A DNA stretch of 64,000 bases from Oscillospiraceae bacterium (GTDB taxonomy: Bacteria; Bacillota; Clostridia; Oscillospirales; Oscillospiraceae): contig WQUY01000002.1 of NCBI GenBank assembly GCA_009781855.1, positions 10,017-74,016 on the forward strand, read 5' to 3'. The notes beneath the pieces were generated by a model. That model saw only the letters and a list, made by a program, of their open reading frames with translations, ran no database searches and had not been told where the DNA came from. Shown piece after piece: positions 4,290 to 63,943 of the stretch. Position 1 is the stretch's first letter. Every line of letters begins with the position of its first letter. Both the position numbers and the translations under genes were made by a program.

Positions 4290-4658
4290 ATGATACAACA
4301 AGAAACGTTTCTGAAGGTTGCTGACAATACCGGCGCCAAGGAAATAAAATGTATCCGCGTTCTTGGCGGCTCCGGAAGAAAGTACGGAAGTGTGGGCGAT
4401 GTAATCGTTGCCTCAGTTCGTAAGGCAGCCCCAGGCAGTGCGGTAAGAAAAGGTGAAGTCGTCAGGGCAGTAATTGTTCGTACAGCTAAGGGCGTTCATC
4501 GCGCCGATGGCACATATGTAAGATTTGACGAAAACGCCGCAGTCCTCATCAAAGAGGACAAAAACCCAAGAGGCACACGCATATTTGGCCCGGTGGCCCG
4601 TGAGCTCCGCGACAAGGATTACATGAAAATCCTCTCGTTGGCGCCCGAAGTAATATAG
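4290..4658 (+). CDS. rplN: 50S ribosomal protein L14
   Basis: 122 aa, [28 protein letters not shown]... Confidence 0.97.
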
Positions 4659-4674
4659 GGAGGGAGCGCTCAAT

Positions 4675-4983
4675 ATGCATATTAAAACAAATGACACCAT
4701 TGTGGTCTTGTCCGGTAAGGATAAAGGCAAACAAGGTAAAGTGATGAGTGTGGATCCAAAAGCCGGAAAGGCGCTTGTTGAGGGTGTAAGTGTCGCAAAA
4801 CGACATAAAAAGCCGCGCAAACAAGGCGACCCCGGTGGTATCATCACAAAGGAAACACCGATTTATACAAGCAAATTAATGCGTGTATGCCCCAAGTGTA
4901 ACAAACCAACAAGACCCGCACACAGCATCAAAGGCGATGGCGAAAAAGTCAGAGTCTGCAAAAAGTGCGGAGCTGAAATCTAA
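4675..4983 (+). CDS. rplX: 50S ribosomal protein L24 (with CxxC-x19-CxxC in the C-terminal third)
   Basis: 102 aa, KOW motif VVLSGKDKGKQGKV; C72/C75/C95/C98. Confidence 0.94.
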   Translation: MHIKTNDTIVVLSGKDKGKQGKVMSVDPKAGKALVEGVSVAKRHKKPRKQGDPGGIITKETPIYTSKLMRVCPKCNKPTRPAHSIKGDGEKVRVCKKCGAEI

Positions 4984-31785: not shown

Positions 31786-31874
31786 TGGCGGAGAGGGTGG
31801 GATTCGAACCCACGTGGGCTTGCACCCTAACGGTTTTCAAGACCGCCCCGTTATGACCACTTCGGTACCTCTCC
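31786..31874 (-). tRNA. tRNA-Ser (anticodon UGA), encoded CCA
   Basis: Reverse complement GGAGAGGTACCGAAGTGGTCATAACGGGGCGGTCTTGAAAACCGTTAGGGTGCAAGCCCACGTGGGTTCGAATCCCACCCTCTCCGCCA. It has a 7-bp acceptor stem, anticodon loop CTTGAAA, long variable arm and T-loop GGTTCGAATCC. Confidence 0.93.
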
Positions 31875-50476: not shown

Positions 50477-52411
50477 TTATCCAAACAACAATGCGCTTAC
50501 AAGCTCAGAAAACTCATTCGGGTCATCAAGTGGAACACCCGCAGTCAGCAACGCCTGGCCATATAGCAACCTTGCGTACTTGGCGGCTTTATCTTTGTCG
50601 TGTTCAAAAGCACCTTTCAATGCAGCAAATGATGGGTGATCTGCATTGAGTTCAAGCACACGCTGGGCGCGCATCATCTCTTCCGGCATACCATCCTGAC
50701 GGCTTTGCATCGCTTTGAAATATTTCTCCATTTCGAGGCTGATTTCACCTTGTGTTGCAAGGCAGCATGGGTGGCTTTTGAGTTTATGTGACAACTTAGC
50801 GCTGACAACTTTCCCATCCAGCGACTCTTTTACAAACTCCAAAAGCTCCTTGTTCTCAGTCTCTTGGCGCTCGGTGTCTTCTTTATCTTCGGGCGTATCA
50901 ATGCCAAGATCCTCATCATTGACCGACCGGAATTCTTTTTCTTCAAAGGCTCTAAGCATCCGAATGACAAACTCGTCTATCTCCTCTGTGAGATAGAGTA
51001 TCTCATAACCCTTTTCACGTACCTGCTCAGCTTGAGGCAGCTTTTCGAGCAAAGTGATGTTTTCCCCTGCGGCATAATAAATGTATTTCTGTTCTTCCGG
51101 CATGTTTTTGACATATTCTGCAAGCGGAATCAGCTTCTTAGCCGTTGAGGAATAGAACATGATTAGGTCAGAAAGCATGTCCTTGTTTGCGCCCCAACCA
51201 TTTGCAATGCCGTATTTAATCTGGATACCGAAGGCCTTGTAAAACTGCTCATATTTGTCAAGATTCTCGTCCATAATTTTTTTGAGCTCTGTCTTGATCC
51301 TCTTTTCGATGTTGTTTGCAATAACCTTGAGTTGACGGTCATGTTGAAGCATTTCACGAGAAATATTAAGCGAAAAATCCGGAGACTCGACAACACCACG
51401 CACAAAGCGGAAGTGCTCCGGCAGCAAATCAGAACAATGTTCCATGATCATAATGCCGGATGAATAGAGCTGTAAACCTGCTTTGTACTCGCGTGTGAAA
51501 TAGTCATAAGGCGCAACCGCCGGTATAAACAGCATAGCCTGATAACTGACCAACCCTTCGGCAGAAACTCTTATTACAGCAGTCGGGTCGGTATGGTCAA
51601 AGAATTTCTCTTTATAAAACTCAGCGCAGTCCGCATCCGAAACATCGCTTTTAGGACGCTGCCAAATCGGTATGCGGCTGTTGATGGTGTCGATTTCGGT
51701 ATAATCTTCCCATGTCTTTTTCTTGTTGCCGCTTTCGTCAACTTCATCAGTCTCGACCTGACGACTCTTGGTGACCTCCATCACTATCGGCCAGCGTACA
51801 TAATCAGAATATTTTTTGATTAAATTGTGCAGAGTATATTCTTCCAGATAGTCGCTATATTTTTCGTCCTCAGTATCCGGTTTAAGCTCGATTACGATAT
51901 CAGTGCCGCAGCCGGTTTTTTCGCATTCATAGGGCTCTAAAGTATAACCATCAGACCCTTCAGAAACCCATCGGTGTGCCAGCTCCTCGCCATAGGCGCG
52001 GGAAGTCACAATCACGCGGGATGCGACCATAAATGCAGAGTAAAAGCCAACGCCGAATTGCCCGATAATGTCTATATCATCAGGTTTGTCATTCATGTCT
52101 TTTTTAAACTGCAGCGAGCCGCTCTTTGCAATCACACCAAGATTTGTTTCAAGTTCCTTTGCGGTCATGCCGACGCCATTGTCGATGATTGTCAGGGTTC
52201 TGTTTTCTTTGTCGGCCTTTATGCTGATTCTAAAATCATCTCTGCTCAGCCCGACTTTATCATCGGTCAAAGAAATGTAGCAAAGCTTGTCGATTGCGTC
52301 AGATGCGTTAGAAATCAACTCACGTAAAAAGATCTCCCTATGGGTGTAGATAGAGTTGACCATGAGATCCAACAGTCTTTTTGATTCTGATTTGAATTGT
52401 TTTTTTGCCAT
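50477..52411 (-). CDS. htpG: Molecular chaperone HtpG (Hsp90)
   Basis: 644 aa, ...IYTHREIFLRELISNASDAIDK... Confidence 0.96.
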   Translation of the reverse strand: MAKKQFKSESKRLLDLMVNSIYTHREIFLRELISNASDAIDKLCYISLTDDKVGLSRDDFRISIKADKENRTLTIIDNGVGMTAKELETNLGVIAKSGSLQFKKDMNDKPDDIDIIGQFGVGFYSAFMVASRVIVTSRAYGEELAHRWVSEGSDGYTLEPYECEKTGCGTDIVIELKPDTEDEKYSDYLEEYTLHNLIKKYSDYVRWPIVMEVTKSRQVETDEVDESGNKKKTWEDYTEIDTINSRIPIWQRPKSDVSDADCAEFYKEKFFDHTDPTAVIRVSAEGLVSYQAMLFIPAVAPYDYFTREYKAGLQLYSSGIMIMEHCSDLLPEHFRFVRGVVESPDFSLNISREMLQHDRQLKVIANNIEKRIKTELKKIMDENLDKYEQFYKAFGIQIKYGIANGWGANKDMLSDLIMFYSSTAKKLIPLAEYVKNMPEEQKYIYYAAGENITLLEKLPQAEQVREKGYEILYLTEEIDEFVIRMLRAFEEKEFRSVNDEDLGIDTPEDKEDTERQETENKELLEFVKESLDGKVVSAKLSHKLKSHPCCLATQGEISLEMEKYFKAMQSRQDGMPEEMMRAQRVLELNADHPSFAALKGAFEHDKDKAAKYARLLYGQALLTAGVPLDDPNEFSELVSALLFG

Positions 52412-52447
52412 GGTTTGAGCTTATCCTCCTTTTTAAGGTGTAATTAT

Positions 52448-53476
52448 TTAAACTAACATTTGTCTGCGTCTGGCGAGATTGATTGTCCCCTCGGTCATTT
52501 CGCCGACCCAGTTGAGCGCTTTGCCAAGCCCGTTAGCAACGCATAAATCAGCATCATCTGCGGTGTGGGTCATGATGTTGGTTCTGTTTGCGATGAGTTT
52601 ATCAAAGCCCCAAAGCAAACTATTTCCACCGGTCAATATAATGCCATTTTGTGAAATATCTGCAACAAGCTCCGGCGGTGTACTTTCAAGCACCTTATGG
52701 ACAGCTTCAACAATGCTTTCTGTAACCTCTTCAAAAGCTTCGAGAATATCTGTTGTACTTACCGCAACAACACGTGGAAGTCCTGTGAGCAAACAGCGCC
52801 CCTTAACCTCGACTGCCATTGATTCGGGTCTCGGAAACACACAGCCGATTCCCTTTTTAAGCTCCTCTGACGTGGTTTCGCCAATCAGCACATTATGCTT
52901 TCGCTTTATATACTTTATAAGCGCATCATCAAAAGCCTCGCCGCCGGCTTTAAGAGACTCGGATGAAACAACGCCATGTAAGGAAAGGACGGCAATGTCT
53001 GTTGTGCCGCCACCCACATCAATGACCATGTGGCCGTCAGGCTTTGCAATGTCAAGCCCCGCTCCAATTGCGGCAGCCAGCGGAGCCTCCATAAGAAACA
53101 CCTTGCGAGCGCCTGCGGCTACGCCGGCATCAATAACAGCACGCTCCTCAACCTCTGTTATTCCGGAAGGCACAGAAACGATTATTCTGGGCTTCATAAG
53201 CGAAAAAGAGAGCGCCTTCCTGACAAACTCTTTGAGCATTCGCTCCGTCATGTCATAGTCAGAAATTGCACCGTTTTTCATAGGGCGGATAGCAACGATA
53301 TTACCCGGTGTCCTGCCGAGCATCCGCTGTGCAGCCATACCGACATTCAGTAAACGCCCTGTGTTTTTGTCCATGGCGACAACCGCCGGCTCACGTAAAA
53401 TAACGCCCTTAACTCTAGTCGAAATAAGAACGGAAGTTGTTCCAAGATCAATTCCTATATCTCTGCCAAAAATCAT
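52448..53476 (-). CDS. mreB: Rod shape-determining protein MreB/Mbl
   Basis: 342 aa, ...DIGIDLGTTSVLI...DVGGGTTDIAV... Confidence 0.94.
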   Translation of the reverse strand: MIFGRDIGIDLGTTSVLISTRVKGVILREPAVVAMDKNTGRLLNVGMAAQRMLGRTPGNIVAIRPMKNGAISDYDMTERMLKEFVRKALSFSLMKPRIIVSVPSGITEVEERAVIDAGVAAGARKVFLMEAPLAAAIGAGLDIAKPDGHMVIDVGGGTTDIAVLSLHGVVSSESLKAGGEAFDDALIKYIKRKHNVLIGETTSEELKKGIGCVFPRPESMAVEVKGRCLLTGLPRVVAVSTTDILEAFEEVTESIVEAVHKVLESTPPELVADISQNGIILTGGNSLLWGFDKLIANRTNIMTHTADDADLCVANGLGKALNWVGEMTEGTINLARRRQMLV

Positions 53477-53486
53477 AGTATCTCCC

Positions 53487-53570
53487 GAGACAAGGGACGG
53501 TTCCTCTGTCTTACAAAAGTAATTAAGTACATAAAACTCGCTTAAAACAGAGGAACCGTCCCTCTGTCTC
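53487..53570 (-). repeat. Pair of inverted hairpin modules in the comF-mreB spacer; the upstream one (53547..53567, minus) looks like the comF terminator
   Basis: Arms GAGACAAGGGACGGTTCCTCTGT (53487..53509) and ACAGAGGAACCGTCCCTCTGTCTC (53547..53570) are inverted copies separated by 37 nt. On the minus strand, ACAGAGG-GACGGTT-CCTCTGT is followed by TTTAAG. Confidence 0.6.
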
Positions 53571-53594
53571 CGAACTCATAAGCAACAAAGCGGC

Positions 53595-54269
53595 TTATTC
53601 GCCACGCGCCAAAGCGGCGCAGACAACACTATTTGCCCCTGCCAAGCGAAGCGCCTTTGCACACTCAGCTAGAGTTGAGCCGGTTGTAACGACATCATCA
53701 ATAAGCAGCACACGCTTCCCCTCTATGAGCTCAGGATCTGAAACCGCATAAGCGCCACTAATGTTAGCACTCCGCTCCGCCTCATCGCCCAACTCCGACT
53801 GAGCCTGGACATCATGAGTCTTTTTTAGCGTCTCCACAGCAACGTCGTTGAGTTCCAGCGCCGTTGCCAGGGCGAGCAGCAAAGCCTGATCATATCCGCG
53901 AGAAGACTTGCGTTTGCTGCTCAGCGGTACCCATGAGATTATATCATATTTTATACCTGGAGTATGCCGGATGCATTCAGCCAAGAGCTTGCCATATGTT
54001 GCAGCATAAGCGGAAGCATCCTTGAACTTGTACCGGTGTATAGATTTTCGGACGACTCCGCTAAAATAGAGCGGTGAAACGCAAAAGTCATAGTAACTTC
54101 CGCTCTGTTGTCCGAAATTGTCGGCAAAGGGTAATGACTCAATACATTTTCCACATATCCCATCGTCGCCACTGTTAAGAATGCTCCCACAAAATACGCA
54201 TTTCGGAGGAAACAGAAGATCCAAAAGTGAAGATAGAAAACCCATAATACACCTCCAGGTTACGCTCAT
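53595..54269 (-). CDS. comFC: ComF family protein (ComFC-type phosphoribosyltransferase domain)
   Basis: 224 aa; N-terminal Cys pairs CVFCG...CGKC; PRT motif LLIDDVVTTGST; TAATG overlap with the recD2 stop. Confidence 0.85.
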   Translation of the reverse strand: MSVTWRCIMGFLSSLLDLLFPPKCVFCGSILNSGDDGICGKCIESLPFADNFGQQSGSYYDFCVSPLYFSGVVRKSIHRYKFKDASAYAATYGKLLAECIRHTPGIKYDIISWVPLSSKRKSSRGYDQALLLALATALELNDVAVETLKKTHDVQAQSELGDEAERSANISGAYAVSDPELIEGKRVLLIDDVVTTGSTLAECAKALRLAGANSVVCAALARGE

Positions 54270-56515
54270 TAATCAGCGAGTCGTGCCCTCAGACCGCTGT
54301 ATCGTCTTAGCCTTCTGTCATTATTAACCATTTGCGACATAACCTCCGGTGTACCAACTATGACAAGGAGATTTTTAGCTCGAGTCATTGCGGTATACAA
54401 AACACCTCGCGTCAAAAGTGGTGGAGCGGCGGAAGTTAGTGCAAGAATAACTGCATTATATTCGCTGCCTTGTGATTTGTGCACGGTGACGGCAAAGGCC
54501 GGCTCCAGTTCGGAAAGCTGTTCAAACAGATATGTTACAAGCCTATCATCAAAATCGACTGTGAGGATTTCCTTTTCATTGTCGATATCCTTGACCAGAC
54601 CTACATCGCCATTAAACACACCCAGACCTTCATTTTGCCCATCACTTGTCTTCCAAATTATATCATAATTATTTCTAATTTGCATCACTTTATCGCCGAC
54701 TCTGAAAACGATGCCCCCCGATTGCTTTTCTTTCCTTGCGGCAGAAGCCGGATTGACGCTCTCCCTGAGCCTGTTATTGAGCATATGTGTACCGGCTGCT
54801 CGCTTTCTGGTAGGTGAGAGAACCTGGATAAGTGAGGAATCTATGCCCATGTTGCTTGGCAGCCTCTTACCATAAAGCTCTGCGACAGTCTCAGCCAGTT
54901 GATCCTCTGATTGGCGTCGAATAAAGAATAAATCCGGATATTTTTCAGTCAAGTCGGGCATGATGCCATTGTTGACAGCATGGGCGCACCGCACAATTCC
55001 GCTATCCGCAGCCTGTCTGAAAATCTCCGACAACGCCACTATGGGCACAACGCCACTTCTCAAAATATCGGCAAAAACATTGCCGGGGCCTACAGGCGGA
55101 AGCTGGTCGGCATCACCGACCATAATAAGCCTGCTGCCGCGCTTCATTGCAGTGAGCAGTGCGCGCATGACTAGAATATCCAGCATTGAAGATTCATCTA
55201 CGATGACCACATCGGCTTTGAGTGGATTTTCTTCATCGTGGTCAAAAATCAACTCGCCATCGTCACCGGGAGATGTGCCCAATAGCCGATGGATTGTGGC
55301 AGCCTCACGCAGACACGATTCAGCTAACCGCTTTGCAGCACGCCCTGTCGGAGCGCACAGGGCTGTTTTTAGCCCCATAGCATCAAAGAGCATCAAAATG
55401 CCATGCACAGTTGTAGTTTTTCCGGTACCGGGGCCTCCGGTAAGCGCCATAACACCGCTGTCTGCGGCAATCTCAATCGCCTCGCGTTGCTTTTTTGCAA
55501 ATTGTATGCCGTCATTGTTTTCAATGTCTTTAATAATCCCGGCGATTGAAAAAGTGGATAGAGCCGAAACAGGAGCGGAGCCTCCGTCTGTCTTGACGTA
55601 AGCAAACGGACGATTTCCGCCAGTCATATCCAAAAGCCGCGAAGCAATATAACATTCTGCTTCATACATATGTCTCAAATAACAACCCTGCACACCGGCG
55701 ATTTCCTCTATTATGACATCCCCACATTCACACAAAGTATCCAACGCATCACTGATAGAATCAAGACTTGCACCAATCAACGTTTCAGTAGCGGCAGACA
55801 ACTTATCTTTGGGAATAAAAATATGTCCATTGCCTAAGTTGTGAATCAGCTCAAACACCAACGCAGCGGATATCCGCTGCGGACAATCACTTTCAAACCC
55901 CAGCTCCAGAGCAATAGCATCTGCCTGAGAAAAATCAGCGCCATAAGCATCCGAAGTTAAAATGTATGGATTATCTCTGACCGCCTCAACTGAATCATCG
56001 CCATAATCCTTGTAAATACGTGTTGCGACAATAGGATTTATGCCATATTGAGTCAAAAAATCAATAATCCGCCTAAGCCCCGCCTGACGACGATATCCCT
56101 CACCAATTTTTCGCGCACTACGCAAAGAAATACCCTTTATCAAAGAAAGCTTATCCGGATTATTTTCAATAACCGAAAGAGATTCGCTGCCAAACTTTTT
56201 TACAATATCACGAGCCTTTGATGGCCCGATGTTTTTGATTGCACCTGAAGCCAGATAGCGGAAAATCTCATCTGCACCACTTGGCTTTCTAAACTCAAAC
56301 GCCTCAACCTTAAATTGCTCACCATACTGAGGATGCGTCATCCATGAACCGGTGAGCAACAAAGACTCGCCGGATGAAACACCAGGAATGCTACCCGCAG
56401 CAGTAACCACCCCATCGGCAGTATCAAGCTTTAAAACAACATAACCATTTTCGGGGTTTGAAAAAACAATGGAACTGATGCGCCCCTCGATTATATTATC
56501 CATCTCACCTATCAC
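54269..56515 (-). CDS. recD2: ATP-dependent RecD-like DNA helicase (RecD2, SF1B)
   Basis: 748 aa, Walker A LTGGPGTGKTT; GTG start 9 nt after GGAG, abutting the dtd stop. Confidence 0.92.
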   Translation of the reverse strand: MIGEMDNIIEGRISSIVFSNPENGYVVLKLDTADGVVTAAGSIPGVSSGESLLLTGSWMTHPQYGEQFKVEAFEFRKPSGADEIFRYLASGAIKNIGPSKARDIVKKFGSESLSVIENNPDKLSLIKGISLRSARKIGEGYRRQAGLRRIIDFLTQYGINPIVATRIYKDYGDDSVEAVRDNPYILTSDAYGADFSQADAIALELGFESDCPQRISAALVFELIHNLGNGHIFIPKDKLSAATETLIGASLDSISDALDTLCECGDVIIEEIAGVQGCYLRHMYEAECYIASRLLDMTGGNRPFAYVKTDGGSAPVSALSTFSIAGIIKDIENNDGIQFAKKQREAIEIAADSGVMALTGGPGTGKTTTVHGILMLFDAMGLKTALCAPTGRAAKRLAESCLREAATIHRLLGTSPGDDGELIFDHDEENPLKADVVIVDESSMLDILVMRALLTAMKRGSRLIMVGDADQLPPVGPGNVFADILRSGVVPIVALSEIFRQAADSGIVRCAHAVNNGIMPDLTEKYPDLFFIRRQSEDQLAETVAELYGKRLPSNMGIDSSLIQVLSPTRKRAAGTHMLNNRLRESVNPASAARKEKQSGGIVFRVGDKVMQIRNNYDIIWKTSDGQNEGLGVFNGDVGLVKDIDNEKEILTVDFDDRLVTYLFEQLSELEPAFAVTVHKSQGSEYNAVILALTSAAPPLLTRGVLYTAMTRAKNLLVIVGTPEVMSQMVNNDRRLRRYSGLRARLAD

Positions 56516-56965
56516 TTACATCGTCTCCGTATCAAACAAAATGGTCACAGGCCCATCATTTACTGAAGCAACATCCATCATCGCCCCAAACTCGCCTGTC
56601 TCAACAGTATGCCCCAGAGCCTTGCACTCTCTGATAAACAATTCATACAAAGGAATCGCAGTATCAGGTCTTGCAGCTTCAGTAAAGCCGGGGCGACGAC
56701 TCTTGCAATCAGCATATAAAGTGAACTGAGAAATCACTAAAATGCTGCCACCGGAAGCGACCAAATCCAGATTCATTTTTCCATCATTATCGCTGAAAAC
56801 TCTCAAATTGCAAATCTTGGCAGCAAGCTTTTTTGCCTCGGTTTCGGTATCGCCATTTTTTATTCCCAGCAAAATTAAAAACCCATTGTCAATTGCACCT
56901 GAAACAGCACCGTCGATGGTAACCGACGCAGAAGAAACCCTTGTAACAACTGCTCTCAATGACAT
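56516..56965 (-). CDS. dtd: D-aminoacyl-tRNA deacylase
   Basis: ORF 57097 trimmed to ATG 56965 (MSLRAVVTRV...). TTG 56959 would give the canonical MRAVVTRV with 8-nt SD spacing. ...SQFTLYAD...; the discarded N-terminus is translation of repeat C. Confidence 0.9.
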   Translation of the reverse strand: MSLRAVVTRVSSASVTIDGAVSGAIDNGFLILLGIKNGDTETEAKKLAAKICNLRVFSDNDGKMNLDLVASGGSILVISQFTLYADCKSRRPGFTEAARPDTAIPLYELFIRECKALGHTVETGEFGAMMDVASVNDGPVTILFDTETM

Positions 56966-57007
56966 ATCCTCCAATATTTCGGACTTGTAAACACCCAGCA
57001 TACCAGG

Positions 57008-57108
57008 CTTACAGGGTGTTGCTGATGGTTTTTTGTTTCGCGAAGTGTAGGGCGACGAGACCGGTTCCGAGCGAAACAACAAAATCATTAGTAACACCCC
57101 AGCACTCC
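57008..57108 (+). repeat. Long-hairpin repeat, copy C (subfamily 2)
   Basis: Reverse complement is near-identical to copy B (25394..25495). Confidence 0.88.
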
Positions 57109-57122
57109 AGAGCGCAGACCGT

Positions 57123-57220
57123 CAAGGGGCTGGCTGATGGTTTTCTGTTTTGCGAAGTGTAGGGCGACGAGACCCGTTCCGAGCAAAACAGAAAATCATT
57201 AGTCAGACCCCAGCATCCCA
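57123..57220 (+). repeat. Long-hairpin repeat, copy D (subfamily 1)
   Basis: Reverse complement matches copy A (21414..21511) over 98 nt by hand comparison. On this strand all 24 stem positions pair (21 Watson-Crick plus 3 G.U). Confidence 0.9.
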
Positions 57221-57253
57221 GAACACAGGTCGGCAAGGGAATAAATATTCCGC

Positions 57254-57307
57254 GTAGGGTCTGATGTCCACATCAGACCGCGGGACGATGCGGGCATCGT
57301 CCCCTAC
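57254..57307. repeat. 54-nt double-hairpin element (copy E2)
   Basis: GTAGGG[TCTGATG-TCCA-CATCAGA]CCGCGG[GACGATG-CGGG-CATCGTC]CCCTAC, 5 nt downstream of the relA stop. Confidence 0.85.
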
Positions 57308-57312
57308 GAGGT

Positions 57313-59499
57313 CTAGCCATCCATTCTGCGCACATCAGTAACACCCGGAACAGACATGATTTTAGCCATCGCAGAAACGAGCTCATCCCTGTTTTTGACC
57401 CCGATATCTATAGACACAATAACATTACCCCCGCCGGTAGCCTTTGCATTAAAAGAAGAAATCTTTACATTCAACGCATTTAACACAGAAGCGATATCAA
57501 CCACTATGCCCGTTCGATCACGAATCTCAACCTGAACACTAGTCATATAAACATGCCCATCGGTCTCAGCCCAACCAACACGCACCCAACGACCTGCGTC
57601 CTCCGACCCCTTTTCGAAATGGATATAATTTACGCAATCCTGCCTATGAACCGACACGCCAAACCCCCTGGTAATAAAACCAACCACCGGATCGCCCGGC
57701 ACCGGAGAACAACACTTTGCAAACTTGACAAGACAATTATCCAAACCCTCAACAGTAACACCCAAGACAGGCTTGAGCTTTGGCTCCTCCCTCTTCTCAA
57801 GTTTTGTGAGCAAAGACGACTCTTTTTTCTTATTCTTTTCGGCAGTGCGTAAATAATCACGAATCTTATGCACAACCTTCTGTGCAGAAATACCACCATA
57901 ACCAATCGCCGCATACAAATCTTCGATTGAATTAAAAGAAGTCCGAGTCAAAACCCTTGACATCAAATCCTCGCTCGAAAGCTCGGACATCTGGATGTTT
58001 TCGTGGCGCATCTCAGTTTCGAATGCCATTTTACCATGAATGACATTTTCTTCACGCTTCTCTTTCTTAAACCACTGACGAATCTTGTTTCTCGCCTCTG
58101 CACTCCTGATGATATCCAACCAGTCGCGGCTCGGGCCCTTTGCAGCATTTGAAGTATGGATTTTGACAATATCACCATTATGTAAAATATGCGTATATGG
58201 AACCAAACGTCCATTGACGATGGCTCCGGTCATCCTGTTGCCCACCTCAGAATGGATACTGTAGGCAAAATCGATTGGCGTTGAACCGGCTGGAAGATTT
58301 ACGACATCGCCGCTCGGAGTGAAAACAAAAACCTCATCGGCAAACATGTCAACTTTAAGCGCATGCAGAAAATCCTGAGCATCACTATCTTGCTGTGACT
58401 CCAGAAGCCGCCTGACCCAGGCAAATTTTTCCTCGTCAGCGACCTTTCCACCCTTACCCTCTTTATACTTCCAATGAGCCGCAATGCCATATTCAGCTGT
58501 TTGATGCATTTCCCATGTACGTATCTGCACCTCAAACGGAAGACCCTCATTACCGATAACTGTTGTATGCAGACTTTGATACATATTCGGCTTAGGCGTT
58601 CCAATATAATCTTTAAAAGCACCCGGAATCGGACGGTACATCTCATGAATATAACCCAGAACATTATAACAATCGGCAATGTCATTAACGATTACGCGAA
58701 AGGCGTAGAGATCCAAAACTTCTGACAGCACCTTATTATCGCCGTACATCTTTCTATAGATACTGTATAGATGCTTTATCCGCCCATTGACGGCACACTC
58801 GATTCCGTGCGCACTGAGACGCTCGGTGATTTTGGTTTGAACACGACTAAAGAAGCTCTCGTCCTCAACATGACGCAGCTTCAACCCATCTATGATTTCC
58901 TTACATCCGATGGGGTCGAGGTATTGGATAGACAAGTCCTCCAACTCCCATTTGACCTTTTGCATACCGAGCCTGTGGGCGATTGGCGCATACATTTCCA
59001 TTGTTTCAAGCGCCTTTTCACGCTGCTTTTCCCGTGCCACATATTCCATAGTTCTCATATTATGGAGCCGGTCAGCAATCTTTATGAGAATGACACGTAT
59101 ATCCTGAGCCATTGCAATCAGCATTTTGCGCAGATTCTCCATCTGCTCTTCTTCTTTGCTGGTATATTGCACACGCGTAAGCTTTGTTACGCCATCAACT
59201 ATCTGAGCAACATCTTGCCCGAAATGCTTCTTTATATCGTCAAAAGTAACGTCGGTATCCTCAATGCAGTCATGCAGAAGTGCAGCGCATAAAGAATCCT
59301 CATCAAGCCCTATCTCAGCGACAATTTCTGCGGAAGCGAGCGGATGAGTAATGTATTCACTGCCATCCTTGCGCATCTGCGTGCCGTGGGCTTTTCGGGC
59401 AAAATCAAAAGCGGCCCGGATGCGGCTCATATCTGCGCCGGGATGGCTTTCAAGTATAACATTTTCTAAATGATGATATCTCTCGAGTACGTCATCCAT
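57313..59499 (-). CDS. relA: Bifunctional (p)ppGpp synthetase/hydrolase RelA/SpoT (Rel)
   Basis: ORF 59574 trimmed to ATG 59499 (MDDVLERYHHL...). HD domain ...HPLASAEIV...LLHDCIEDT...; 728 aa; C-terminal ACT region. Confidence 0.93.
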   Translation of the reverse strand: MDDVLERYHHLENVILESHPGADMSRIRAAFDFARKAHGTQMRKDGSEYITHPLASAEIVAEIGLDEDSLCAALLHDCIEDTDVTFDDIKKHFGQDVAQIVDGVTKLTRVQYTSKEEEQMENLRKMLIAMAQDIRVILIKIADRLHNMRTMEYVAREKQREKALETMEMYAPIAHRLGMQKVKWELEDLSIQYLDPIGCKEIIDGLKLRHVEDESFFSRVQTKITERLSAHGIECAVNGRIKHLYSIYRKMYGDNKVLSEVLDLYAFRVIVNDIADCYNVLGYIHEMYRPIPGAFKDYIGTPKPNMYQSLHTTVIGNEGLPFEVQIRTWEMHQTAEYGIAAHWKYKEGKGGKVADEEKFAWVRRLLESQQDSDAQDFLHALKVDMFADEVFVFTPSGDVVNLPAGSTPIDFAYSIHSEVGNRMTGAIVNGRLVPYTHILHNGDIVKIHTSNAAKGPSRDWLDIIRSAEARNKIRQWFKKEKREENVIHGKMAFETEMRHENIQMSELSSEDLMSRVLTRTSFNSIEDLYAAIGYGGISAQKVVHKIRDYLRTAEKNKKKESSLLTKLEKREEPKLKPVLGVTVEGLDNCLVKFAKCCSPVPGDPVVGFITRGFGVSVHRQDCVNYIHFEKGSEDAGRWVRVGWAETDGHVYMTSVQVEIRDRTGIVVDIASVLNALNVKISSFNAKATGGGNVIVSIDIGVKNRDELVSAMAKIMSVPGVTDVRRMDG

Positions 59500-59633
59500 T
59501 GCATTGCCGCGAATGATGCAAACCCCAGCGTGTATCTGGAAATTATGGGCTTGCCTTACCGCGCCTCCTCTCAATTGCGAAATCGCTTAGCGTCGTAAGT
59601 GAAACAAAAAATTAAATGCTGCTCATTATATAG

Positions 59634-61337
59634 TTATTTATGAGACGCTAAACTGGGTTTGATATCGATCAGACGCAACTGTACACTGCTGCGACCGCGA
59701 AATTCGTTTATCTGTGGCTCAAATGCTGCGTCAACAAGAGAACCGACACTTACGCCCAAATCTTCTGATGGCATCGAGAAAAATATGCAATCAAGGCTGC
59801 TTCCGGACTTTTCAAGTCTGAGCCTTGTATGTTTTCCTGCACCTATGGATTGAGTGGAAGAAATCTCAGCGCCACTCATATACAAGCTGGGTGAAGGGTT
59901 TCCGTTACCGAATGGCTCAAGCATTTCAAGTGCCTGGATGTTCTGGACGGACAATAGCTCGGGTTTGGTTACTTCAAAATCCAATTTCAACTCAGGTGCA
60001 GGTATCGTATCAATGTTGTCGGAATAATATGCCGCCATACGTTTTTTGAAACTTTCGATTTTCCCATCGGAAATAGAAAGCCCCGCCGCCATTTCATGCC
60101 CTCCGAAATTATCCAGAATATCCGAGCATGAACGCAACGCATCGAAAATCGGAAAAGAACCAAAGCTCCGGCAGGAACCGCGCCCAACGCCCGAATCATC
60201 AATGCTGATGATTATCGTGGGCATGCGATACCGCTCAGCTATTTTGGCGGCGACTATCCCGGTGACCCCCTGATACCAATCCTTTTGAGCCAGTATAATT
60301 GGCCCCTCACACGGCGATTCGACCAACATGGCCATGGCCTCATCAAATATCTCGCTTTCTCTCAGTCTGCGTTCCAAATTCAGACGACACAACGCCTCTG
60401 CGAGTTCTTTAGCATCGCCAATATTGCCGGTAAGCAAAAGCTCCTTTGCCAGACTGGTTTGCCCCATTCTGCCTGCGGCATTGAGTCTTGGTGCAAGAGT
60501 ATACCCAACAGTCGTAGCCGTTATTTTCCCCGGTGCAATGCTGACTTCCTTAAGTAGCTGCAAAATGCCTGGGTGTGGGGATTCGTTTAAAACAAAGAGC
60601 CCACGGCGTATCAGCTCACGGTTTTCGCCGACAACCGGCATAACGTCTGCGATGGTGCCCACCGCAACAAGATCGCCATAAGCAGCGAAAAGCGTGTCAA
60701 TATCAGTGTCCTTTTCAAGTGCGCAAATCAACTTAAACGCAACGCCGACTCCTGCAAGCACCTTGTTTGGATAATTGCAATCGAGTCGCTTAGGATCAAC
60801 AACCGCATTGGCCTCCGGCAGCGCACCCATGCATTCGTGATGATCGGTGACCACAACGGACATGCCAAGGTTTCTGGCATGTTTTACTTCTTCAAGTGCG
60901 GTTATCCCACAATCAACTGTGATGATAAGGTCTATGCCCTTTGATTTTAACACATCAATTGCGGCGGTATTCAGCCCATATCCCTCTCCAAACCTGTTGG
61001 GAATATATATCTCATAGTCTGCACCCTGCGTATCCAACCAACGCGCCAAAACTACGCTTGATGTCAGCCCATCCACATCATAATCTCCATAAATGGCAAT
61101 GCGTTCGGAGCTTTCAACAGCTGCACGTATACATGCAACTGCATTTTTCATATCTTTCATGAGCAATGGGTCGTGTATTTCACTATGCCCATCTCCAAGC
61201 ATTTCTTGTACTTCCTCTATGTGCTTAGAACCACGTGAGGCAAGAAAAACGGATACCAGCGGATTGACGCCCTGACGATAGAAGTCTACTGCCGTATTTC
61301 TGTCAAAATCGCCGACTACCCAGTTTCGAAACCTCAT
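59634..61337 (-). CDS. recJ: Single-stranded-DNA-specific exonuclease RecJ
   Basis: ORF 61484 trimmed to ATG 61337 (MRFRNWVVGDF...) behind GGAAGGAAG; DHH motifs ...IAIYGDYDVDG...VVVTDHHE... Confidence 0.92.
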   Translation of the reverse strand: MRFRNWVVGDFDRNTAVDFYRQGVNPLVSVFLASRGSKHIEEVQEMLGDGHSEIHDPLLMKDMKNAVACIRAAVESSERIAIYGDYDVDGLTSSVVLARWLDTQGADYEIYIPNRFGEGYGLNTAAIDVLKSKGIDLIITVDCGITALEEVKHARNLGMSVVVTDHHECMGALPEANAVVDPKRLDCNYPNKVLAGVGVAFKLICALEKDTDIDTLFAAYGDLVAVGTIADVMPVVGENRELIRRGLFVLNESPHPGILQLLKEVSIAPGKITATTVGYTLAPRLNAAGRMGQTSLAKELLLTGNIGDAKELAEALCRLNLERRLRESEIFDEAMAMLVESPCEGPIILAQKDWYQGVTGIVAAKIAERYRMPTIIISIDDSGVGRGSCRSFGSFPIFDALRSCSDILDNFGGHEMAAGLSISDGKIESFKKRMAAYYSDNIDTIPAPELKLDFEVTKPELLSVQNIQALEMLEPFGNGNPSPSLYMSGAEISSTQSIGAGKHTRLRLEKSGSSLDCIFFSMPSEDLGVSVGSLVDAAFEPQINEFRGRSSVQLRLIDIKPSLASHK

Positions 61338-61487
61338 TCCACAAACCACTTCCTTCCGCAGTGCAATACTACAATGTAACAGTATATCAAAACGAAAATG
61401 CCTTAACAATATATAAACGGAAAAGTTTACGCCTTGCTGCGAAAAATTCCCGTTTATAGTTGCTTCAGATATGTTGATTATCACTAA

Positions 61488-61516
61488 AGCTGGCGGGCGT
61501 TCGACTCCTGCCAGCT
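61488..61516 (-). repeat. T-loop-like short hairpin, short variant S4
   Basis: AGCTGGC-GGGCGTTCGACTCCT-GCCAGCT: perfect 7-bp stem, loop contains GTTCGACTCC. Overlaps the stop codon of the cyclase gene. Confidence 0.65.
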
Positions 61517-62159
61517 AATCGGTGATGGCATATGCCCGAACGGGGCTGCCATCGCCATTTTCGAACTTGAGCGGAACAGCGCTGAAATAAAAACGCTTGC
61601 CGATGAGCGGTTTGAGGTTTATGAGAGACTCAATGATACCCAAATCGCGACCCAGTAAATCACGATGGATAGAGCCTCCTAAGTCAATTGACGGCAAATC
61701 AAACCCGATGCCGTTAGCGCCGAGCTTTGTCAGAAGCGCACCGGTTTGGGGGTGAAATTCCGGATAATTGAAATATTCCTTGGTGCCGACCTTATCCTCC
61801 CAACCAGTATGGAATATGATGATATCGCCGGGTTTTATGGAATCTTTATTTTTTTCAAGTACTTCGGAAAAATCCAAGACCTTATCAGGCGTGACATCCG
61901 GAACATCAAAGCACACCGCCTGGCCGCAATACTTTGCCAAATCAACCTGTGCTGTGCTTTTTCCATCTTTGATAAAATGCAGCGGAGCATCAACATGCGT
62001 GCCCATGTGTGAACTCATAGAAACGACAGATGCCTGCACTTGATGCTCGTCGTGATTTACGGAATGAGACCATGTCATAAAAGGGTCGTTTGCAGGCAGA
62101 AATGGCAGCGTTTTTTCGTTTAATGTGATCGTTAAATCATGTATCATATTTCTTACCAC
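61515..62159 (-). CDS. Cyclase family protein (kynurenine formamidase-like)
   Basis: 214 aa (GTG 62159; alternative ATG 62147); metal motif SSHMGTHVDAPLHF. Confidence 0.85.
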   Translation of the reverse strand: MVRNMIHDLTITLNEKTLPFLPANDPFMTWSHSVNHDEHQVQASVVSMSSHMGTHVDAPLHFIKDGKSTAQVDLAKYCGQAVCFDVPDVTPDKVLDFSEVLEKNKDSIKPGDIIIFHTGWEDKVGTKEYFNYPEFHPQTGALLTKLGANGIGFDLPSIDLGGSIHRDLLGRDLGIIESLINLKPLIGKRFYFSAVPLKFENGDGSPVRAYAITD

Positions 62160-62176
62160 CTAAAATTATTTTTTAA

Positions 62177-62211
62177 GCCGAAGTCAGGCGATGGGACTTA
62201 CTCTCGTCAGC
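62177..62211 (-). repeat. T-loop-like short hairpin motif, copy S3
   Basis: GCCGAAGTCAGGCGATGGGACTTACTCTCGTCAGC. Overlaps the stop of the thioredoxin-fold gene; on the minus strand it is followed by TTAAAAAATAATTTT. Confidence 0.65.
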
Positions 62212-62467
62212 TTATAGCGGTGTCAAACACACCCTTTATGATCTCTAAACTTGGAACGCCGCTATACAGCAGCGTATCTTCGACAAAATATGCCGGGACA
62301 AGGTCGTAGTCATAGTTGTCAGAAATGTCCGGCTGCTGAATTTCGTCAATGGTTTCAATTTCTAGTGCCCTGTACTCAGGGCTTTTGGCAAACAGCTCGT
62401 CCATCATATGGAAAGCCTGTTTGCAATATGGTCATGTTGCAATAATAAACATCCTGATTTTTTTCAA
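62207..62467 (-). CDS. Thioredoxin-fold (glutaredoxin-like) protein with in-frame TGA at the first redox position: candidate selenoprotein (UPYC) or nonsense pseudogene
   Basis: The ORF track lists only 62207..62407. The same frame continues upstream: TTG 62467 (GGGAGG 8 nt upstream) or ATG 62452 gives MKKIRMFIIAT-TGA(62432..62434)-PYCKQAFHMMDELF...LVPAYFV...SGVPSLEIIKGVF. A hairpin GCAAACAG...CTGTTTGC starts 7 nt after the TGA. Confidence 0.55.
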
Positions 62468-62578
62468 ACAAAACACCTCCCGCTAGCTTGATTTGTTACA
62501 CCAGTATACCACGAACATTTGCGCATAGCAAAACTTATGGTAAAATGTACGTAGGCTAAACTGGAAGGGTGACATTGT

Positions 62579-63943
62579 GTGAAAATTATACTACCGGACG
62601 ATGCGTTATATATCATAAGCACCCTTGAAAACAACGGTTATGAAACCGTTGTTGTTGGGGGAAGTGTTCGCGATGCACTTTTGGGCAAAGTCCCGAATGA
62701 CTGGGACATAGCCACCGCAGCAACCCCTGAGCAAAGCATCTCATGCTTCTCTGGGCAACGCATAATCGAAACGGGTCTGAAACATGGAACAATAACACTG
62801 TTGCTCAATAATAAACCATACGAAATCACCACATTTCGGACGGATGGAATTTACAAAGACAACAGGCGCCCGGAAACAGTACAGTTTACAGGTGACTTGA
62901 AAAGCGATTTGGCTCGCAGGGATTTCACAATCAATGCGCTTGCATACACACCGCAAAAAGGAATTATTGATTTTTTTGGCGGCATAGATGATATAAACAA
63001 TCGGAAAATCCGCTGTGTTGGCAATGCAGCGAAGCGATTTGAAGAAGATGCTTTGAGAATAATGCGGGCTATGAGATTTTCGGCAACACTGGAGTTTGGC
63101 ATTGAATCTGCTACAAAAGAGGCGCTGAAAAAGTCAGGGCATTTGCTTAATAATATTGCAAAAGAACGCATAAGCGACGAATTAAATAAACTGCTGTGCG
63201 GTAGAAACGTAGGAGCGACGCTGCTTGAATATTCGGAGATTATCGGGATAATTATTCCGGAAATAATCGATATGATAGGGTTTGAACAAAACACCAAATA
63301 CCATGATTTGGATGTATGGAACCACACGGTAAAAAGCGTTGGAAAAACGCCTTCCGAAATAGTTCTGCGGTTGACATTGCTTTTGCATGACATAGCCAAG
63401 CCGAGCTGTTATACATATTCGGAGGGGAAAGGGCACTTCCACGGTCATCAGGCAACGGGAGCAGAAATGGCCAAAAGGATACTGTCCCGACTTAAATATG
63501 ATAACGATACGATTCAAACAGTTACAACACTGATTTTATTCCATGATGCCGAGATTGTTCCGGAAAACAAAGCAATAAAACGATGGCTGAACAGACTGGG
63601 TGAACCGAAACTTCGTCTATTGCTGGAAGTCAAGAAAGCAGATGCAAAAGCCCAAGCTGAAAAATTCCGTCACCCAAGAATAGAAATGCTGGATGAAGCA
63701 AAAAATGTAATGGACAAAATCGTTTTGCAGCAGCAATGTTTTGCGATAAAAGATTTGGCGATCGGCGGTAACGACCTGCTTGCACTGGGTGTGCCGCCCG
63801 GAATACAAATAGGCGAAATGCTCAGTAGCTTGCTGGATATGGTGGTTGACGAGAAAATCGAAAACGACAAAGCGCAATTGCTGGAAAAAGCGCAGGAGCT
63901 GAGTGGACATCCACCGGAGACATACCTCGGGAATATGCCTTGA
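62579..63943 (+). CDS. cca: CCA-adding tRNA nucleotidyltransferase (with HD domain)
   Basis: 454 aa, GTG start; GGSVRDALLGKVPNDWDIAT; ...LLLHDIAKP... Confidence 0.9.
   Translation: MKIILPDDALYIISTLENNGYETVVVGGSVRDALLGKVPNDWDIATAATPEQSISCFSGQRIIETGLKHGTITLLLNNKPYEITTFRTDGIYKDNRRPETVQFTGDLKSDLARRDFTINALAYTPQKGIIDFFGGIDDINNRKIRCVGNAAKRFEEDALRIMRAMRFSATLEFGIESATKEALKKSGHLLNNIAKERISDELNKLLCGRNVGATLLEYSEIIGIIIPEIIDMIGFEQNTKYHDLDVWNHTVKSVGKTPSEIVLRLTLLLHDIAKPSCYTYSEGKGHFHGHQATGAEMAKRILSRLKYDNDTIQTVTTLILFHDAEIVPENKAIKRWLNRLGEPKLRLLLEVKKADAKAQAEKFRHPRIEMLDEAKNVMDKIVLQQQCFAIKDLAIGGNDLLALGVPPGIQIGEMLSSLLDMVVDEKIENDKAQLLEKAQELSGHPPETYLGNMP

Follow-up and report, generated by a model that had tools for sequence, protein, structure and literature searches.

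Thioredoxin-fold proteins with a selenocysteine-containing redox motif (UxxC, where U is selenocysteine, Sec) form the largest class of bacterial selenoproteins, which includes thioredoxin (Trx), glutaredoxin (Grx), AhpF-N-like, DsbA-like and other members. Among the described systems closest to the present one are the Sec-containing glutaredoxin (UxxC) of Clostridium sp. OhILAs/Alkaliphilus oremlandii (Kim et al. 2011, Mol Microbiol 79:1194, as cited in PMC13188914) and a Sec-containing thioredoxin (UxxC, PF00085; Kim et al. 2015, BBRC 461:648, as cited in PMC13188914). Furthermore, PF13192, or the related TIGR02187 domain, has already been recorded with selenoproteins in a 2026 inventory, there with the motifs CxU and UxC (Sec.1, Sec.2). 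Here, we describe a redoxin gene at 62207..62467 of a 64,000-nt stretch of DNA from an Oscillospiraceae bacterium (contig WQUY01000002.1, positions 10,017 to 74,016; hereafter the window), whose reading frame contains an in-frame TGA at codon 12. Judged by comparative sequence analysis, this is very probably a genuine selenoprotein gene, encoding an 86-residue thioredoxin-fold thiol/selenol-disulfide oxidoreductase with the motif Sec12-Pro-Tyr-Cys15. We favor this reading because Cys and Sec codons pair at the aligned position, other homologs carry the same TGA, purifying selection acts on both sides of it, the genetic code is standard, constraint at the RNA level is specific to the Sec forms, the protein has the appropriate fold, and a downstream hairpin has suitable spacing and stability. 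A Cys/Sec pair, TGA-containing homologs and a candidate selenocysteine insertion sequence (SECIS) together are the accepted computational standard for such assignments.

Going by what the citing article reports of it, the OhILAs glutaredoxin is, like the window protein, a small stand-alone Trx-fold redoxin of anaerobic Clostridia that has Sec in place of the N-terminal nucleophilic Cys and abundant Cys orthologs. However, it is filed under PF00462, whereas the window protein, with Cys written for the TGA, remains under the gathering threshold of this family (18.6 vs 22.9 bits) and surpasses that of Thioredoxin_3 (PF13192; 32.0 vs 24.8 bits, E=1.3e-7, residues 4-80 of 86); in addition, no MsrA gene lies nearby. 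The Sec-thioredoxin, again as far as the citing article describes it, shares the UxxC motif on a thioredoxin fold, and Foldseek places the model of a window ortholog among thioredoxins. Yet the window protein is shorter (86 aa), has four strands, lacks the N-terminal beta-alpha extension, and carries a CPYC-type motif instead of WCGPC; its match to Thioredoxin PF00085 is insignificant (E=0.17, Cys for TGA). A third comparison concerns MJ0307 and MTH895 (1fo5, 1nho; TIGR00411) and the C-terminal domain of Pyrococcus PDO (1a8l, 1j08; TIGR02187), which resemble the window protein in length (~85 aa), CPYC-type motif and Thioredoxin_3 architecture. In contrast to these Cys proteins, the window protein carries the putative Sec codon, and its scores fall far below the NCBIfam cut-offs (TIGR00411, MJ0307-type, 28.8 vs 92.75 bits; TIGR02187, PDO/AhpF-N-terminal type, 32 vs 185), so that it is to be regarded as a relative and not as a member of these families. 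Likewise, the NCBIfam Grx equivalogs reached only 14-20 bits against cut-offs of 84-129, and, given this and the PF00462 score, the NCBI name "glutaredoxin" is not supported as family membership. Compared by motif, U-P-Y-C differs from the entries of the 2026 inventory.

By sequence, the closest solved structures are MTH895 (1nho), MJ0307 (1fo5) and the CPYC domain of Pyrococcus PDO, with E values from 7e-6 to 5.5e-5. The structure was modeled by AlphaFold2 on a proxy, the closest full-length Cys ortholog (P0003, 66 % identical), yielding a four-stranded thioredoxin fold of high confidence (pLDDT 97.1; E4-8, H13-28, E37-41, H46-49, E59-62, E65-69, H74-85). In the model, the elements follow the order beta-alpha-beta-alpha-beta-beta-alpha, helix 1 carries the redox motif at its N-terminus, and residue 12 immediately precedes helix 13-28; when the PDB was searched with this model by Foldseek, the best matches were thioredoxins (TM 0.70-0.76). 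Owing to the family match, the modeled fold and the location of residue 12 at helix 1, the TGA is seen to sit where a CxxC redox motif has its nucleophile. Pro58 (LVPAY), which directly precedes strand 59-62 in the model, is invariant in 55 homologs. Both the thioredoxin-fold identity and the retention of Pro at the cis-Pro position (LVPAYFV) claimed in a preliminary description of the locus, made from the sequence alone, are thus borne out.

On the minus strand, where all features of the redoxin gene are located, the 5' codons read TTG-AAA-AAA-ATC-AGG-ATG-TTT-ATT-ATT-GCA-ACA-TGA-CCA-TAT-TGC, and the frame translates as MKKIRMFIIAT-TGA(62432..62434)-PYCKQAFHMMDEL..., or in full as MKKIRMFIIAT-[TGA]-PYCKQAFHMMDELFAKSPEYRALEIETIDEIQQPDISDNYDYDLVPAYFVEDTLLYSGVPSLEIIKGVFDTAIS, with a TGA stop at its end. 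Direct reading of the sequence confirmed this frame (MKKIRMFIIAT[TGA]PYCK) as it had been described, together with the TTG start, the GGGAGG placed 8 nt upstream of it and the in-frame TAG bounding the frame. It was also correctly noted that the 66-aa open reading frame (ORF) of a mechanical list (62207..62407) starts inside the thioredoxin fold, as it begins at Met21 and lacks strand 1 and the redox motif. TGA terminates 16 of the 61 non-overlapping ORFs of >=90 aa in the window, among them cca, whose domains extend to its C-terminus; therefore, UGA is not generally reassigned here and the genetic code is the standard one, in agreement with the previous exclusion of a genome-wide reassignment. 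A scan of the window for other selenoprotein genes gave a second TGA-split ORF (4413..4847, with an 85-codon extension), which was dropped because of its implausible translation.

Homologs were gathered by a protein search and then by DNA-level scans of metagenome contigs and GTDB representative genomes, giving 134 further loci, and about 115 distinct homologs were compared at the DNA level. The protein search recovered full-length Cys homologs and three proteins of 65-67 aa beginning at the same internal Met, and the contigs of these three (L001-L006) all read MK(N/K)I(K/R)MF(V/I)L(A/G)R-TGA-PYCKQA.... Of the 137 loci that could be scored at the corresponding codon, these contigs among them, 65 have TGC, 64 have TGT and 8 have TGA. 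A fifth distinct Sec form (P0019, loci L145-L147) emerged from a second protein search, and altogether five distinct sequences have TGA (the window, L001, L004, L006 and L145) vs ~109 with Cys, the TGA aligning with the first Cys of CP[YH]C in the latter. The preliminary description had asked whether orthologs possess Cys or TGA at this codon; both occur, with TGA in four other diverged sequences and Cys in more than 100. The four other Sec forms are diverged (57-67 % protein identity) and originate from several metagenome samples and assemblies, while the window locus has been assembled twice elsewhere, each time with the TGA (ENA ERZ27257300 and Logan SRR10512955). Six short homologs (P0088, P0062, P0042, P0030, P0023 and P0098) were considered as further Sec forms, but each of them proved to encode Cys, its start having been miscalled.

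Between the Sec forms, synonymous divergence is saturated (pairwise pS 0.46-1.1; pN 0.09-0.31), and the ratio of nonsynonymous to synonymous change (dN/dS), where computable, amounts to 0.09-0.36 upstream of the TGA (10 codons) and to 0.12-0.16 downstream of it (72 codons). None of the five contains a further stop or a frameshift. L001 starts with ATG and the other Sec forms with TTG, and L001, L004 and L145 have GGAGG or GGGGG at the position equivalent to the Shine-Dalgarno (SD) sequence. Sec forms are confined to one narrow metagenomic clade, the nearest named relatives of which are metagenome-assembled genomes (MAGs) of Oscillospiraceae, and the names of related MAGs suggest a termite-gut origin of the lineage. 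Neighbor-joining trees, built from 250 nt and of weak resolution, show the Sec forms scattered among Cys forms.

RNAalifold, applied to the five Sec forms, predicted two hairpins downstream of the UGA. In the consensus, hairpin 1 pairs nt 11-22 with nt 37-47; it is made up of a lower stem, GCAAACA(G)/(C)UGUUUGC, and an inner stem of 3-4 bp, with UCCAU-AUG-AUGGA as the apex in the window. This is the structure indicated previously, namely an 8-bp stem (GCAAACAG/CTGTTTGC; its second strand is also given as CUGUUUGC) that begins 7 nt past the TGA and encloses the UCCAU-AUG-AUGGA element, and its presence was verified: the window fold has a minimum free energy (MFE) of -17.3 kcal/mol (z = -2.25 vs shuffles), and 6 of 200 shuffles were as stable. 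All five Sec forms retain 10-11 of 11 stem pairs, in line with the question formerly raised of conservation among orthologs, whereas all 11 pairs are found in 1 of 111 Cys forms; the apical part differs among sequences. Close Cys relatives keep 7-11 of the pairs because the stem is built of the conserved CKQA and DELFA codons, and the Cys form L009 (1136-1393) has a complete hairpin 1 (11/11 pairs). The loop of hairpin 1 is located 19-25 nt from the UGA in the Sec forms, with an MFE of -14 to -18 kcal/mol, both inside the published ranges for bacterial SECIS elements (bSECIS; PMC13188914). The consensus given there demands a loop of 3-9 nt, a stem of 4-16 bp, a G in the first two loop positions, a distance of 16-37 nt from the UGA and an MFE <= -7.5 kcal/mol.

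Hairpin 2, not noticed in the preliminary description, is conserved more strictly than hairpin 1. Despite synonymous saturation elsewhere in the gene, its 14 nt are invariant in the Sec forms, whereas each of the six nearest Cys forms differs from them by 1-5 changes. Its AGUA tetraloop conforms to the consensus (G then U from the second position), its codons CCT GAG TAC AGG are non-preferred, with a joint probability of 0.004 under the codon usage of the window, and the sequence occurs a single time in the window. Both hairpins are intact in 5/5 Sec forms vs 2/109 Cys forms (L011 and L015, both from the nearest clade). Furthermore, of the same-amino-acid codon pairs of Sec forms, a fraction of 0.27 differ synonymously over the 22 codons that follow the UGA, vs 0.55 over the remainder of the gene; among close Cys forms, the corresponding values are 0.47 and 0.56. 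As synonymous change is halved after the UGA and both hairpins are kept in the Sec forms, we conclude that selection at the RNA level operates downstream of the UGA, and that it does so specifically in Sec forms. The hairpins of the Cys forms L009, L011 and L015 fit either a recent Sec-to-Cys replacement that left SECIS relics or hairpins that are older than Sec. It is conceivable, though rather unlikely, that hairpin 2 acts as the functional SelB-binding element and hairpin 1 as a structured spacer or pausing element; if true, this would constitute a bipartite or long-range bacterial SECIS beyond the canonical 16-37 nt.

Several observations weigh against a selenoprotein at this locus. With respect to the consensus rules, which we re-implemented ourselves from the published bSECIS description, the spacing (24 nt), stem and energy (-16.5 kcal/mol) of window hairpin 1 comply, but its loop, AUG, has the G in third place and breaks the rule of a G within the two leading positions. 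The hairpin described earlier, at a distance typical of SECIS elements, therefore matches this consensus incompletely. Across the family, all rules are passed by 3/5 Sec forms (4/5 at 5 kcal/mol), but also by 17/102 Cys forms and 4/15 genuine TGA stops, so that the rule set as re-implemented, a check of the kind proposed earlier, discriminates weakly. MFE alone did not separate Sec from Cys forms. In the five Sec forms, at the chosen register, no stem pair has a compensatory change on both sides; L006 contains one possible G-C to A-U switch, contingent on which of two adjacent bases bulges. Part of the conservation of the stems, moreover, is imposed by the peptides CKQA and DELFA, which are themselves conserved, and the case for RNA structure rests on conservation and suppressed synonymous change, not on covariation. 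Hairpin 2, in turn, is separated from the UGA by 55 nt, more than the 16-37 nt that are usual. No Rfam family matched either hairpin: a gathering-threshold scan of the whole window gave only a tRNA-Ser, and a permissive scan of 62300..62500 gave chance CRISPR and snoRNA matches but no SECIS family. Finally, tblastn with E. coli queries detected no SelA, SelB or SelD, either in the 64 kb of the window or in the loci that were fetched, and ARAGORN found no tRNA-Sec in the window or in 10 loci, 8 of which are Sec-form or window-locus contigs; such searches of a window and single loci are uninformative as regards the whole genome. The sole tRNA of the window is the tRNA-Ser at 31786..31874 (minus strand), whose anticodon is UGA and which is not a tRNA-Sec according to both ARAGORN and Rfam.

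How else could the TGA be explained? Read-through of the UGA by a near-cognate tRNA-Trp or tRNA-Cys, independent of Sec machinery and yielding low amounts of W-P-Y-C or C-P-Y-C protein, would accord with the lack of Sec machinery within the window and the fetched loci and with the deviant loop of window hairpin 1. It is nevertheless highly unlikely, since a protein with Trp in place of its nucleophile would be inactive, and since such a strategy would be costly for a housekeeping redoxin that could acquire Cys, as neighboring lineages have it, by a single change to TGC or TGT; instead, retention of the TGA in five lineages over saturated synonymous divergence, along with Sec-specific RNA structure, points to a dedicated recoding signal. 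Even less probable appears an internal start, by which the true product would be the annotated 66-aa protein initiated at Met21 or Met22 and the 11 codons before the TGA would be a leader peptide or untranslated. This is the product called by gene callers and deposited at NCBI (MCL2391116.1, "glutaredoxin", 66 aa), and two ATG codons are indeed available 9 codons past the TGA. However, such a protein, deprived of strand 1, of the beginning of helix 1 and of the entire redox motif, could not adopt the fold, Met21 is not preceded by an SD sequence, and the 10 upstream codons align with strand 1 of Cys homologs and are conserved as amino acids despite many synonymous changes (dN/dS 0.09-0.36). 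The same call at the internal Met (MDEL...) was made on plain Cys homologs, namely P0011/L015, P0062/L149, P0030/L152, P0023/L154, P0098/L155, P0042/L151 and P0088/L148, often because the true start is TTG or because the upstream region was skipped. It is therefore a habit of the software rather than evidence, and short length is no reliable flag of Sec in this redoxin family.

A nonsense pseudogene, in which TGC or TGT mutated to TGA in a decaying gene, is barely plausible: the TGA is one substitution away from either Cys codon and occurs in a minority of homologs, but it is common to five diverged sequences without any further stop or frameshift, dN/dS is ~0.1-0.2 with synonymous sites saturated, and the SD sequence, the start codon and the synteny (cca; recJ, relA, dtd) have been retained. 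The saturated pS also excludes that the five TGA sequences represent one recent clone. Thus, a selenoprotein is to be preferred over a pseudogene, the two explanations between which the preliminary description had hesitated, on account of the shared TGA, the intact frames and the purifying selection on either side. It had further named a sequencing or assembly error as a possible objection; such an error has a practically negligible chance, as the TGA recurs in the two other assemblies of the locus and in four other distinct sequences from different samples.

If the gene is decoded as a selenoprotein, its expression would follow the established bacterial Sec pathway. By analogy, SelB-GTP carrying Sec-tRNA(Sec) would bind the downstream hairpin at UGA12 and deliver Sec in place of release; hairpin 1 lies at canonical spacing for this purpose, and hairpin 2 may assist or may itself be what SelB binds. 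In the absence of selenium, translation would end after 11 residues. In the mature protein, Sec12 at the N-terminus of helix 1 would attack a substrate disulfide or sulfenate through its selenolate, Cys15 would resolve the mixed selenenylsulfide to form an intramolecular Se-S bond, and this bond would likely be re-reduced by a flavoenzyme of the thioredoxin-reductase type.

Correction of MCL2391116.1 along these lines would add a Sec-containing member to the PF13192 family of small redoxins, and the assignment would imply a Sec-decoding trait in an uncultured Oscillospiraceae lineage. The general picture of bacterial selenoproteins remains unchanged by this gene, its sole unusual feature being the distal, invariant 14-nt hairpin beyond the usual distance from the UGA. 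With five Sec forms and about a dozen closely related Cys forms, this syntenic locus offers a compact natural set for studying Sec/Cys exchange and the SECIS requirements of Gram-positive bacteria. On a rather unlikely reading, the interspersed Sec and Cys forms, together with two Cys forms that keep both hairpins, would document repeated recent Sec-to-Cys switching at one locus.

Features of the redoxin locus (window coordinates; hairpin positions in nt are counted from the U of the UGA)
Feature	Coordinates	Strand	Remarks
Full coding sequence, thioredoxin-fold selenoprotein candidate	62207..62467	-	86 codons + TGA stop, Sec at codon 12; orthologs align end to end
Promoter-like TTGCTA-17-TATACT, TG before -10 hexamer	62503..62531	-	consensus match only; 1 site vs 2.7 expected by chance, weak evidence
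In-frame TAG bounding the frame	62483..62485	-	six codons upstream of TTG
Shine-Dalgarno GGGAGG	62476..62481	-	8 nt upstream of TTG
TTG start codon	62465..62467	-	read in sequence
In-frame TGA, codon 12, proposed Sec codon at nucleophilic position of U-P-Y-C	62432..62434	-	TGA also in 4 other distinct sequences
TGC, codon 15, resolving Cys of UxxC	62423..62425	-	invariant among all homologs
Hairpin 1	62388..62424	-	nt 11-47; SECIS candidate at canonical spacing
Hairpin 2, CCCUG-AGUA-CAGGG	62368..62381	-	nt 54-67; nucleotide-invariant in five Sec forms
CCG, codon 58, conserved cis-Pro position of thioredoxin fold	62294..62296	-	invariant in 55 homologs
TGA stop of redoxin gene	62207..62209	-	read in sequence
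PF04199 "putative cyclase" family gene (kynurenine-formamidase-like), 210 aa	61515..62147	-	Pfam match; 59 nt downstream of redoxin

The redoxin gene is embedded in a housekeeping block (50477..63943) composed of cca on the plus strand, followed on the minus strand by the redoxin, the cyclase, recJ, relA/spoT, dtd, a recD2-like helicase, a comF-like phosphoribosyltransferase, mreB and htpG. In the window as well as in L001 and L004, the redoxin is flanked by cca and, on its opposite side, by recJ, relA/spoT and dtd. No thioredoxin reductase, peroxiredoxin or Msr gene was found within 14 kb of the redoxin, and the distant Cys homologs, at Clostridium, Hungatella, Lutispora and Desulfitobacterium loci, share no common neighborhood. 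The sole recurrent neighbor is the PF04199 gene, which directly follows the redoxin in at least 7 distinct loci of the narrow clade, with 71-79 % protein identity and differing outer flanks. Two of these carry the Sec form (window 61515..62147 and L145:1480-2109) and five the Cys form (L010:3255-3884, L011:1331-1957, L015:3282-3911, L019:260-889 and L009:1399-1815), and L001, L004, L007 and L014 are without an adjoining PF04199 gene. Such an arrangement suggests a two-gene module and hints that the two are functionally linked and possibly operon partners.

The Sec redoxin and cyclase pair of L145 (JGI 3300009826) is the same as that of L146 (ENA ERZ27257300) and L147 (Logan SRR10512955), and represents a second pair of this kind, as the latter two datasets also hold the window locus. 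It is flanked by a TetR-family gene and by a 906-aa molybdopterin oxidoreductase with its Fe-S partner, and could be either a paralog in the same genome or part of a co-resident relative.

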